From: Candidatus Babelota bacterium
GTDB lineage: Bacteria; Babelota; Babeliae; Babelales; Babelaceae
Length of the DNA: 31,948 bases
Assembly: GCA_013821315.1 (NCBI GenBank)
Contig: JACDHA010000016.1
Coordinates: 1-31,948 of the forward strand
Direction of reading: 5' to 3'
Within the stretch, counting starts at the first letter, position 1. Every line of letters begins with the position of its first letter. The notes under the pieces were generated by a model. It was not told the origin of the DNA and did no database searches. It was given only the letters and a program-made list of their open reading frames with translations. A program made the translations under genes and the position numbers. Positions 29,134-31,948 of this stretch are shown here, in pieces.

Positions 29134-30600
29134 ATGTATAAATCAACTAAAGCATATATTGCTCTAGCTTTATTTTCTTTAGCATTACCGCAAGCTCAGC
29201 TTAGTGGGATGCAATCTAATTCCAATAGCGCAGTATCACATAATGCTTTAAAGAAAAGATATGACTTTTTAGAGTCTGAAGCTCAAAAGAATTCTGATCA
29301 GGTAATGAGTCTAATAGTGACCAAACAATCTCTTAAACAAGCACAAGCTTTAGGTGCAAAAAGTGCAACTGATCAAAAACTGAATAAGATTAATGAAGAA
29401 ATAGCACAACAGCTGAGTACCGGTAAGCGCATCTTAGAAAATTTAGATTATACTGCCGAAACCCTTAAAAAGACACCTGTTACAATAAATGATCAACTGC
29501 AAGAAAGAAGAGCTCAATGGATTGCCAGGCAACCCCTACAGAGCGATAGTTTTGAAGATCTTTTTAAAGCTTCCGATGCTCAACATTCTGCTGCAGTGAG
29601 TACAATAGGGCATGATTTAAGAGCGGTTGGTAATGATCTAAAAGCAATTCAAAGTAAAGTAATAGAGCAACAGCAACAAGCAAATACGCGAAGGCAAGAG
29701 CTCTTGCAGCAGTCTAGGCAGGATCTTGATAGCTTACACGCTCTTATTGCAACACCTGCACGTATACAACCTCAGTCTAGTGTGCTGAATGTTCAAGCAG
29801 CTGCACAACGAGCACTTCCGCAGATTAACTCTATTGATGTTGTTGAGCCATTAAGAAACGTGCTTAGTGAAGCACAACAGCAACTTCAAGCCGCTCCTAG
29901 TGAAATTCAACCGAATTTACCTCTAGTTAGAGCTGGTCGCTTATTAGCTGACGAAGCAGATGATGAAGATAACAACGGGCTATTAGCACTTCAAAAAATT
30001 CAGTATCTAGGAAATTATATAAAAGATACTGTTAATGAGCATCGCTATATAACTGCAGGAGTAGCAGTAGGTGTAGGTGCAGGAGCTTTATATGCCTTTA
30101 ATAAGCCTGTACGAGAAAAATGTAATAAAACGGCACGACAAGCTAAAGACAAAGTAAAGGCTACTTGGCAGGAGCTACAAGAGACTAAAGTTACAGCAAA
30201 AGGTGCTGCTGGATTATTAAGCCTTGCAGCTATTATTGCTTTTACAAATGCTCATCGCGATGTAGTAGCTACTTCTACAGCAAGTGCTTATAACTATGTA
30301 ACGAATAATAAAAAAGCTAGTTTAGCTACGTTAGCTACTGGAGCAGCGCTAGCTGGTTTACTTAGGTATGCTTTTTATAGAAAAGATCTAGTAGATGCTA
30401 CGCGTGCTAAGCATAAGTTAATACAAACTACCATGGCTAAATTTATCGATTCTTTAACGTTACCTCAGTGGGCATACTCAGGCATAGATAAGGTAATTAC
30501 AAGAGCTTACTATACTCCTGAAATTTTAAAAGCGAACACAGATTTGTGGAGTGCGCTTTCTGAAGATCAAAAAGCTTTAATTAATCAGTTAAATAATTAA
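29134..30600 (+). CDS. Hypothetical secreted or membrane protein (488 aa). It has a signal peptide, a long Gln-rich predicted coiled-coil region, and three C-terminal Ala/Gly-rich hydrophobic helices.
   Basis: MYKSTKAYIALALFSLALPQAQLSG signal-like N-terminus. About 280 aa of heptad-like Q/E/K-rich sequence (IEQQQQANTRRQELLQQSRQDL...). Then ITAGVAVGVGAGALYAF, KGAAGLLSLAAIIAFTNA and LATLATGAALAGLLRYAFY. No homology I recognise. Confidence 0.6.
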   Translation: MYKSTKAYIALALFSLALPQAQLSGMQSNSNSAVSHNALKKRYDFLESEAQKNSDQVMSLIVTKQSLKQAQALGAKSATDQKLNKINEEIAQQLSTGKRILENLDYTAETLKKTPVTINDQLQERRAQWIARQPLQSDSFEDLFKASDAQHSAAVSTIGHDLRAVGNDLKAIQSKVIEQQQQANTRRQELLQQSRQDLDSLHALIATPARIQPQSSVLNVQAAAQRALPQINSIDVVEPLRNVLSEAQQQLQAAPSEIQPNLPLVRAGRLLADEADDEDNNGLLALQKIQYLGNYIKDTVNEHRYITAGVAVGVGAGALYAFNKPVREKCNKTARQAKDKVKATWQELQETKVTAKGAAGLLSLAAIIAFTNAHRDVVATSTASAYNYVTNNKKASLATLATGAALAGLLRYAFYRKDLVDATRAKHKLIQTTMAKFIDSLTLPQWAYSGIDKVITRAYYTPEILKANTDLWSALSEDQKALINQLNN

Positions 30601-30634
30601 ATATACCTGTATATAAAACTATGAAAGTTTTACT

Positions 30635-30937
30635 ATGACTCAAAAGAAAATGTTTTTTAGTATTGTTTTAAGTTTAGCGTTTCTTAGTAATAACTGTGCT
30701 CAAGCAGCAGATCTTACAACGAGCAAAGCAGCTTTTTATGTAAAGAAAATGTGTGCTAATCTTAAAGCAACTACGTATAGTGGTTTAAGTAAAACAAAAG
30801 CTTTATTGTATAGAGGTAAAACTAAAGTTGCTCAACCAGGTGATTACATAATTACTCGTGGTATGGCTGTTAAAACCGTGGTAGCTGCTGGTGCACTCTA
30901 TGGTATAGCACGAGGTCTTCAAAAGCTTAGAAAATAG
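30635..30937 (+). CDS. Hypothetical small basic secreted protein (100 aa), member of the local family.
   Basis: Signal peptide MTQKKMFFSIVLSLAFLSNNCAQA|AD. The C-terminus, VVAAGALYGIARGLQKLRK, carries the shared A-G-x-L-Y-G + basic module. Confidence 0.55.
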   Translation: MTQKKMFFSIVLSLAFLSNNCAQAADLTTSKAAFYVKKMCANLKATTYSGLSKTKALLYRGKTKVAQPGDYIITRGMAVKTVVAAGALYGIARGLQKLRK

Positions 30938-31011
30938 CATAAGCTATAACTAGTAATAAGTTACGCTCTTTTCAAGATTATGATACTCTATATACTTAAC
31001 AATTAGACAAA

Positions 31012-31066
31012 TACTTAAGGATTGTATGAATAAAACCAATAAAAAATTAGTTATAGCATTAAGTGT
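31012..31066 (+). repeat. Direct repeat, copy 1 (5'-UTR/RBS plus signal-peptide coding module); copy 2 lies at 31339-31393.
   Basis: tacttaagg(a/g)ttgtatgaataaaa(c/g)caataaaaaatta(g/a)ttatagcattaag shows about 52 of 55 identical nt between the two loci, then diverges. Confidence 0.8.
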
Positions 31067-31286
31067 AGTAGGTCTTCTAAGCATGCCAATAAACATGCGT
31101 GCTCATGGTTTTTCTGCTCTGTCTTCTAAGTTTAATTCTAAGCTTAGCTCTAGTACAGTTTTTTTTATTATGCTAGGCAGCTATATAACTTATAAGCTGT
31201 ATAAACGTTATCAAACAACTCAAGAACAAGAAATTGAAGAACAAGAAATTCAAGAGCAGCAAGAATTAGCTGTAGAAAACGAATAA
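31026..31286 (+). CDS. Hypothetical small signal-peptide membrane protein (86 aa) with a Q/E-repeat tail, paralogous at its 5' end to the next gene.
   Basis: MNKTNKKLVIALSVVGLLSMPINMRA|HG signal, then TVFFIMLGSYITYKLYKRY, then EQEIEEQEIQEQQELAVENE. Confidence 0.5.
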   Translation: MNKTNKKLVIALSVVGLLSMPINMRAHGFSALSSKFNSKLSSSTVFFIMLGSYITYKLYKRYQTTQEQEIEEQEIQEQQELAVENE

Positions 31287-31338
31287 TTTAAAAAGCTTTT
31301 TTCTGTTATAAAAGTTTATTATTTTAGTAACTAGTTAT

Positions 31339-31393
31339 TACTTAAGGGTTGTATGAATAAAAGCAATAAAAAATTAATTATAGCATTAAGCAT
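31339..31393 (+). repeat. Direct repeat, copy 2 of the 5' module shared with 31012-31066.
   Basis: See copy 1. Confidence 0.8.
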
Positions 31394-31948
31394 TGTTGGC
31401 ATACCTGTTAGCATCAATGCCCACTTTTTTAATAAAAAAGTAGTTGCTACAACAGGTGTTACTGCAGGCGTAGCTTTAGCCGCTCTTGCTTATAAAAAAC
31501 GGCAAGCTCTTAAAAATGCAGCAATAGCGACTAAAGAAAAAACAGTTGAGCTTTACGATAGAGCAGTATTTGCTGCCGGAATTAAAGTTTTGGAATGCCA
31601 AGAATGGTGGCAAGAGTTTGATAAAACTCCATTAAACTATGCTGACATTACAGCAGCTACTGCTTTTTGCGGTACAGCATACGGTCTTAAAAAGCTTGAT
31701 GATACCTATAATGTTGGTCGTAAAATAGTTAATGCAACTAAAGCTACCGCTCGCGTAACTTCTGGCTTGATAGGTACTATAGCTAAAGCAACACCTGGAG
31801 TAGTTTATCGTAACAGCACAGAAGCTTGGGCGTATGTAAATTCTCATAAAACACAAGTGGCTGTTATTACTGGTAGTTTAGGGGCAGCCTATATCTTATG
31901 GCAAATTGGCAAAAGTGTTAATGCCGATAGACAGCAGAATTTAACAAC
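31353..31948 (+). CDS. Hypothetical signal-peptide protein, 3'-truncated at the window end (more than 198 aa). Paralog of the 31026 gene, with four repeats of the Ala/Gly-rich ...Y + basic module. Not in the ORF track because no stop occurs in the window.
   Basis: Translating from the ATG at 31353 gives MNKSNKKLIIALSIVGIPVSINA|HFFNKKVVATTGVTAGVALAALAYKKRQ...AATAFCGTAYGLKKLDD...TSGLIGTIAKATPGVVYRN...VITGSLGAAYILWQIGK..., open to nt 31948. Confidence 0.5.
   Translation, partial: MNKSNKKLIIALSIVGIPVSINAHFFNKKVVATTGVTAGVALAALAYKKRQALKNAAIATKEKTVELYDRAVFAAGIKVLECQEWWQEFDKTPLNYADITAATAFCGTAYGLKKLDDTYNVGRKIVNATKATARVTSGLIGTIAKATPGVVYRNSTEAWAYVNSHKTQVAVITGSLGAAYILWQIGKSVNADRQQNLT

Follow-up and report, generated by a model that had tools for sequence, protein, structure and literature searches.

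Interlocus gene conversion in bacteria is exemplified by the tufA/tufB genes of Salmonella, the babA/babB and sabA/sabB genes of Helicobacter pylori and the opa genes of Neisseria. Another arrangement, in which a leader is conserved and the remainder of the protein varies, is found in surface lipoprotein families such as vlp of Mycoplasma hyorhinis, vsp of M. bovis and vsa of M. pulmonis, and in the paralogous families of Borrelia. Here we describe a locus with features of both, a direct repeat of 52 nucleotides (nt) that covers the starts of two adjacent genes, A (H0X48_04610, MBA3954571.1) and B (H0X48_04615), in a metagenome-assembled genome (MAG) of an uncultured Candidatus Dependentiae bacterium. 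The window analysed is the entire 31,948-bp contig JACDHA010000016.1, whose right-end genes carry the locus tags H0X48_04600 to H0X48_04615. We conclude that the near-identity of the two gene starts is probably a short gene-conversion patch between old adjacent genes, which arose in this lineage only and after its split from a congeneric genome.

The locus resembles the known cases of interlocus conversion in having a patch of near-identity within one genome, with sharp edges, inside which paralogs are closer to each other than to their orthologs and outside which they are diverged; in both, the genes encode exported or surface proteins. It differs from them in that the patch is very short, lies at the extreme 5′ end of the genes with 14 nt of untranslated region (UTR), and is flanked by sequence almost without homology. 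A single event in a single lineage is seen here. With the Mycoplasma and Borrelia families the locus shares a conserved ribosome-binding site and leader, variable mature regions, clustered genes, host association and a small AT-rich genome, but those families are multi-copy, their leaders carry a lipobox cysteine, their mature regions are rich in repeats and they switch by means of either a promoter homopolymer or a site-specific recombinase.

The first copy of the tract (31012..31063, + strand) comprises the last 14 nt of the gene A 5′ UTR, with the ribosome-binding motif AAGG at 31017–31020, the ATG at 31026 and codons 1–13. The second (31339..31390, +) covers the same elements of gene B, with AAGG at 31344–31347 and the ATG at 31353. 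The copies are in direct orientation, 327 nt apart, and are identical at 49/52 bases (94%), including 13 of the 14 UTR positions. Both a repeat search and translation bear out the sequence-only reading that first drew attention to this repeat, which had located it over the AAGG, the ATG and the codons for MNK(T/S)NKKL(V/I)IALS; its figure of about 95% identity is slightly generous for the exact 55 nt to which it was applied, where 50/55 bases match (91%). The repeat search extends the copies to 61 nt at 89% identity (31012–31072 and 31339–31399). Three independent assemblies show this arrangement, L001 (Logan), L002 (GCA_020064125.1) and L011 (GCA_020063985.1, a 99.7%-identical strain), and it is therefore no assembly artefact.

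The similarity far exceeds that of other gene starts. When the segment from −14 to +38 was compared among all 78 open reading frames (ORFs) of at least 60 codons in 41 kb, made up of the window and its extension, A and B gave the best of the 3003 pairs with 49/52 matches, against 29/52 for the runner-up and a mean of 16.7 (standard deviation 3.5). The alignment score of the tract is 46, compared with a shuffle mean of 0, and a pattern spanning both copies found no match in 100 shuffles. A search of the same 41 kb for a third copy found none.

Both edges of the tract are sharp. On the upstream side, the proximal 40 nt are no more similar than shuffled sequences (p 0.44), and similarity over all 72 nt is marginal (p 0.009), so that there is no clear promoter block in common. 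On the downstream side, the remaining signal-peptide codons of A (codons 14–27, 31064..31106, +) and B (codons 14–24, 31391..31424, +) match at 19/33 positions (58%; p 0.10 against shuffles) with a 9-nt indel, A having a GLL(S) insertion that B lacks. The mature proteins give no BLASTP alignment with each other at E≤100. The abrupt loss of identity described in the sequence-only reading is thus real. The signal peptides themselves are homologous along their whole length (MNKTNKKLVIALSVVGLLSMPINMRAH in A, MNKSNKKLIIALSIVG---IPVSINAH in B), and a profile comparison that included the orthologs gives an alignment of 25 columns (probability 93.6%).

The age of the gene pair can be judged from a relative (ENA ERZ27297509, Logan ERR6862854), the only related genome found with both genes. 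Its contig L005 carries rpoA-rplQ-nifU, a 760-residue ortholog of the gene that lies third upstream of B in the window, a second gene of 190 residues and the start of an ortholog of A, termed A′ (L005:12999-13162), at which the contig ends. Two further contigs, L003 and L004, start within the final codons of A′ and run on into B′ (protein P0002) and the downstream genes that are also found here. Amino acid identity is 50% between A′ and A, over the 54 residues available, and 47–51% between B′ and B. The relative's housekeeping proteins (the rpoA, secY, S4, adk and map products) are 92–97% identical to those of the window's genome, with synonymous divergence (dS) of 0.35–0.56. A′ and B′ are thus orthologs in the same order between the same flanking genes, so that the pairing of A and B is older than the divergence of the two genomes.

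Within the tract the relationships are reversed. A and B match at 49/53 aligned positions (92%), compared with 36/53 (68%) for A and A′, 36/47 (77%) for B and B′, 34/47 (72%) for A and B′, 35/53 (66%) for B and A′, and only 26/47 (55%) for A′ and B′. By Fisher's test the A–B identity is distinguished from that of A′–B′ at 2e-5, from A–A′ at 0.003 and from B–B′ at 0.047. The ortholog values of 68–77% equal the local background of the surrounding gene island, about 60–80%, which indicates that the tract is not unusually constrained between species. Outside the tract the orthologs group together: the mature proteins align for A–A′ and for B–B′ but not for A–B, and an insertion of two to three codons directly after the tract is present in A and A′ and absent from B and B′. 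DNA identity over codons 14–27 is 64% for A–A′, 52% for B–B′ and 58% for A–B, a stretch too short to separate the groupings.

Paralogs that are closer than orthologs inside the tract, with ortholog grouping outside it, are most simply explained by conversion. What is observed is the repeat with its abrupt boundaries, the antiquity of the two genes as a pair and the absence of a comparable homogenisation from the sister genome; that recombination was the mechanism, and that the event was neutral, we infer. At the outset there would have been an old pair of neighbouring, lineage-specific genes, already homologous in their Sec-type signal peptides. A single non-reciprocal recombination, either interlocus gene conversion or a template switch, between the direct copies 327 bp apart would then have replaced positions −14 to +38 around the ATG of one gene, about 52 nt, by those of the other. 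The distances fit transfer from A to B or from B to A. The patch would have carried the ribosome-binding site, the start codon, the n-region and the first part of the h-region, leaving the two genes with nearly the same translation-initiation region and signal-peptide N-terminus while the old divergence was retained outside it. The differences accumulated since the event would number three, or four in strain L011.

The nature of these differences suggests a recent common ancestry of the two copies rather than long constraint at the protein level. Two of the three A–B differences in the coding part of the tract are nonsynonymous, whereas the codon is identical at 9 of the 10 amino acids that are shared, a value with a probability of 0.0045 under independent draws from the genome's codon usage. 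In strain L011 a synonymous single-nucleotide polymorphism (SNP; 31043 A>G) lies inside the tract of A, an indication that bases of the tract are free to change.

Several points weigh against conversion. The argument is a comparison of four sequences, with a single related genome. A tract that is frozen in this genome and fast-diverging in the relative would fit the six distances equally well, and it is on parsimony only that we reject it. The 9/10 codon identity is not significant (p 0.20) when set against an ortholog baseline of 0.73, which is itself dominated by housekeeping genes; as the relative is close (rpoA 96%, secY 97%), the codon-identity argument is weakened and the conclusion rests on the A′–B′ comparison. 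The Shine-Dalgarno motif and spacer, AAGGATT.TATG, are nearly identical in B′ (8/9), and part of the UTR identity may reflect ancestral constraint rather than conversion. Finally, the flanks are very diverged, the longest stretch common to all four sequences being about 11–14 nt (AAAAAATTAAT), so that there is little homology from which classical RecA-dependent conversion could start.

The first alternative dispenses with conversion and supposes that purifying selection at the nucleotide level has kept the 52 nt alike, for instance because both genes initiate translation from a common type of region, are bound there by one regulatory RNA or protein, or need a specific n-region for export targeting, and that the relative has lost this constraint. 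Selection on mRNA sequence acts at the Shine-Dalgarno motif, the start codon and the early codons, and the tract covers exactly these elements. The conservation of the Shine-Dalgarno spacer in B′ fits such selection, as does the slightly higher codon identity of housekeeping orthologs in codons 2–13 (59/68) than over whole genes (0.73), and the pairwise tract distances taken alone are compatible with it. The equally old A′–B′ pair, at 55%, and the orthologs, at background level, are not what it predicts, and neither are the predominance of amino acid changes among the coding differences and the synonymous SNP segregating in A. A more distant B ortholog (P0005, from contig L012) and other members of the B family have quite different N-termini. 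Moreover, the identity would in the first place still have required a copying event. We regard selection as an unlikely explanation of the repeat.

A search for regulatory elements gave no grounds for shared control. An Rfam search at E≤1 found no match at gathering score in the tract, and folding of the four initiation regions did not differ from shuffles. A promoter consensus scan gave only a weak TTTTCA-16-TATACT upstream of A and none upstream of B, with site counts at shuffle expectation. The claim in that reading that either of its explanations would imply shared translational or export control is thus not upheld, no RNA family, significant structure or common promoter block having been found. 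The ends of each tract copy form an imperfect 8-nt inverted repeat, ACTTAAGG ... CATTAAGT/C (31013–31020 with 31058–31065, and 31340–31347 with 31385–31392). As a structure over the Shine-Dalgarno motif this was rejected, its energies being no better than those of shuffles (z-scores −0.37 and +1.55). A sub-threshold Rfam match to RF02778, the FdoG-1 5′ UTR thermometer (31395–31559, +; 22 bits against a gathering score of 50, E 0.0065), lies inside the gene B coding region, outside the tract, and is most likely due to chance.

A related view, which we hold to be distinctly unlikely, is that the direct copies are themselves functional, either as an initiation and signal module shared under one trans-acting control or as sites for recombination by which gene A would be reversibly lost or doubled and B re-promoted. 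If this were true, the locus would be a minimal copy-number or phase-variation switch in a surface-protein island, or a means of joint control of two fast-evolving, otherwise unrelated envelope proteins of a Dependentiae symbiont.

It is highly unlikely that the tract is one copy of a multi-copy leader cassette, made up of promoter-proximal UTR and signal peptide, ahead of many variable surface-protein genes, perhaps with programmed switching or with loss of gene A through recombination of the direct repeats. Such a cassette would produce the layout seen here, in which unrelated mature parts stand behind a conserved 5′ end, in a rapidly evolving island of exported-protein genes from a probably host-associated bacterium; SNPs between strains are concentrated in A and B, and gene A could be deleted precisely by way of the direct repeats, which lie 327 bp apart. 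Yet the hallmarks of the Mycoplasma and Borrelia families are missing from the sequence covered. Only two copies exist in the 41 kb, residues 1–30 of A and of B contain no lipobox cysteine, and the sister genome is without the shared cassette. No recombinase or invertase gene was recognised in the window, where the ORFs scanned encode YidC, RecR, an SPFH protein, a DnaJ-domain protein, aminopeptidase P, a Na+/H+ antiporter, L13 and RseP, the others being mostly ribosomal-protein and translation genes as judged by position and by Pfam labels on L001. Long homopolymers and tandem repeats are absent from the promoter region, runs of A in the tract do not exceed 6, there are no significant inverted repeats around the genes, and the three assemblies agree in arrangement, with no deletion variant. 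The sequence-only reading had offered a leader grafted on to different cargo as one of two possibilities. This survives to the extent that a 52-nt 5′ patch seems to have been copied, but the signal peptides were already homologous and no evidence of a reusable module was found, since only two copies are present in the 41 kb, the A′–B′ tract identity is 55% and the signal peptides of other B-family members are unrelated.

The other possibility offered there, a recent tandem duplication of the whole gene followed by extreme divergence of everything but the first 52 nt, is very improbable. In its favour, A and B are same-strand neighbours whose signal peptides are homologous; BLASTP matches A to the N-terminal 62 residues of B at 35% identity, an alignment owed to the signal peptide; and both proteins consist of a signal peptide, a linker, a hydrophobic helix and a Y-K-basic motif. 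Against this, both genes already exist as separate, diverged orthologs, in the same order, in a genome at a housekeeping dS of 0.35–0.56, the mature parts do not align and even the rest of the signal peptide has fallen to 58% identity.

Chance or compositional convergence of Lys/Asn-rich signal-peptide starts in an AT-rich genome can be dismissed as vanishingly improbable: although MNKxNKKL[ILV]I occurs with the same codons in 20 unrelated AT-rich contigs (archaea, Bacilli, Clostridia and candidate phyla radiation (CPR) bacteria), these match at most 42/61 positions, not beyond the pattern imposed by the search, whereas A and B are 89% identical over 61 nt, and neither the shuffles, the next-best gene start nor the 13/14 identity in the UTR allows for it. 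The 20 contigs came from a degenerate tract pattern, which gave 4 unrelated matches in a GTDB-based collection without the source genome and 16 in JGI metagenome contigs. The start ATG AAT AAA nnn AAT AAA AAA TTA recurs among about 20 unrelated contigs (L007–L010 and L015–L030), from Methanosarcinales, Bacilli, Clostridia, Portnoybacteria and metagenomes, and the MNKxNKKL n-region is a generic solution in AT-rich genomes.

The two genes appear, from a heuristic reading of their predicted features, to encode exported or membrane-anchored proteins with signal peptides of the Sec/signal peptidase I (SPase I) type. Gene A (31026..31286, +) is an ORF of 86 codons whose product has a signal peptide at residues ∼1–27 (...NMRA|HG), a short linker, a hydrophobic helix at ∼40–54, the basic segment YKLYKRYQ and an acidic Q/E-rich tail. 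In the relative, two assemblies are each interrupted within A′, close to where gene A has the coding sequence for its Q/E-rich repeat (the end of L005 at 13162, and the starts of L003 and L004). Gene B (31353..31948, +) runs off the end of the window; the MAG contig terminates inside it, the remainder being H0X48_05685 on another contig, and the full gene (L001:10328-11143) encodes 271 residues. Its product has a signal peptide at ∼1–24 (...INA|HF), hydrophobic helices at ∼29–46 and ∼168–183 and a conserved C-terminal helical domain at ∼200–271. Neither gene has a Pfam or NCBIfam match at curated thresholds.

Both leaders have the features of SPase I substrates: a charged n-region (net charge +3 in the first 8 residues), a hydrophobic h-region of ∼12–14 residues, a helix-breaking proline in the c-region and an alanine at −1 of the inferred cleavage sites (NMRA|H and INA|H). 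Hydropathy peaks at 2.46 over residues 6–24 in A and at 2.21 over residues 5–26 in B. The residue at −3, Met in A and Ile in B, is less typical than Ala, Val or Ser.

The B family extends well beyond this locus. A profile search of 1.84 billion representative proteins gave 37 members at E≤0.001 and 10 at E≤1e-10, which share mainly their last ∼100 residues and differ greatly in their N-termini and signal peptides. The shared domain, of ∼75–100 residues (P0005–P0039), has a consensus of roughly F..SL(S/T).EQ...I..S..L..L...A.DNP..L.....FM.LL...QK..L..IV..Y, and a Pfam scan of 39 family members found no common family. An AlphaFold (AF2) model of B, built on the family alignment, is all-helical with a mean predicted local distance difference test (pLDDT) score of 71.6, and is confident only for residues 200–271 (>92); it has no match to a PDB fold at E<1. 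In one further contig (L013:204-1170, ENA ERZ28575407) a B-like gene is present as two overlapping ORFs, one of 112 residues with a signal peptide and hydrophobic helix and one of 211 residues with the remainder. The architecture of the 112-residue ORF is that of gene A, which hints that A may descend from the duplicated 5′ part of a B-like gene.

The island to which A and B belong, as its third and fourth genes, is lineage-specific; its four genes all encode signal-peptide proteins, and it follows rpoA-rplQ-nifU and precedes a Pyr_redox_2 gene. The first, H0X48_04600 (29134..30600, +), encodes 488 residues with a signal peptide, and its C-terminal ∼130 residues are paralogous to the C-terminal part of B (BLASTP E 0.002; hhalign 94.7%, E 6e-8, 126 columns). 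Its ortholog in the relative, P0004, has 760 residues, with an extra ∼270 residues directly after the hydrophobic core of the signal peptide, beyond which homology resumes. The upstream region and first ∼17 codons of this gene are ∼89% identical between the two genomes (29134–29260 against L005:10001-10127). A second cassette boundary at this leader was considered and rejected, the difference being a large indel with homology continuing beyond it. The second gene (30635..30937, +) encodes 100 residues with a signal-peptide-like N-terminus and has no Pfam or NCBIfam family match; the 190-residue protein at the same position in the relative is barely alignable with it (23%).

A more distant relative with a syntenic island (L012:2263-4249, JGI 3300086451) has a MerR gene after nifU and no A-like gene. 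It carries adjacent paralogs of 281 and 368 residues with two stretches in common, of 274 nt (93% identity) and 108 nt (92%), and with one further internal copy. Recent duplication or conversion thus recurs in the island, which favours a conversion event between A and B.

The proteins of the island evolve fast under relaxed constraint. They are 44–51% identical between the two genomes (29134–31948 with L001 to 11143, against L005:10001-13162 and L003:1-831). Since mature A and B cannot be aligned with each other, the ratio of nonsynonymous (dN) to synonymous divergence was computed between orthologs, and is 0.38 for mature B (dN 0.36, dS 0.94), 0.47 for mature A and 0.35 for the first island gene, compared with 0.04–0.11 for the neighbours. 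Comparison of the window (29770–31948) and its extension with L011 places 8 of the 9 SNPs over 3443 nt in A and B (binomial p 6e-4), 6 of them nonsynonymous and 2 synonymous, whereas comparison with L001 over 10.9 kb shows a single difference, the nonsynonymous I99V in gene B (31647). The sequence-only reading held that the repeat implied diversifying selection on the exported part if not shared control. That does not follow from the repeat; the clustering of mostly nonsynonymous strain SNPs in A and B supports the fast evolution of these proteins, but both dN/dS ratios are below 1. Positive selection is possible at some sites and is not demonstrated.

The event described here is an ordinary one, of a known kind, in a fast-evolving tandem gene cluster of an unstudied organism. 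It is a small and clean illustration that old genes may pass for a recently duplicated or grafted pair after conversion of a short patch, and is a caution for the interpretation of repeats at gene starts. It also draws attention to an island in these Dependentiae genomes, flanked by nifU and a pyridine-nucleotide oxidoreductase gene, whose signal-peptide proteins belong to no known family, diverge about ten times faster than their neighbours and include a C-terminal helical domain, confidently folded in the predicted model, found in about 37 protein clusters and without a Pfam family. In a phylum of obligate protist symbionts, the proteins of this island are candidates for envelope or host-interaction proteins.

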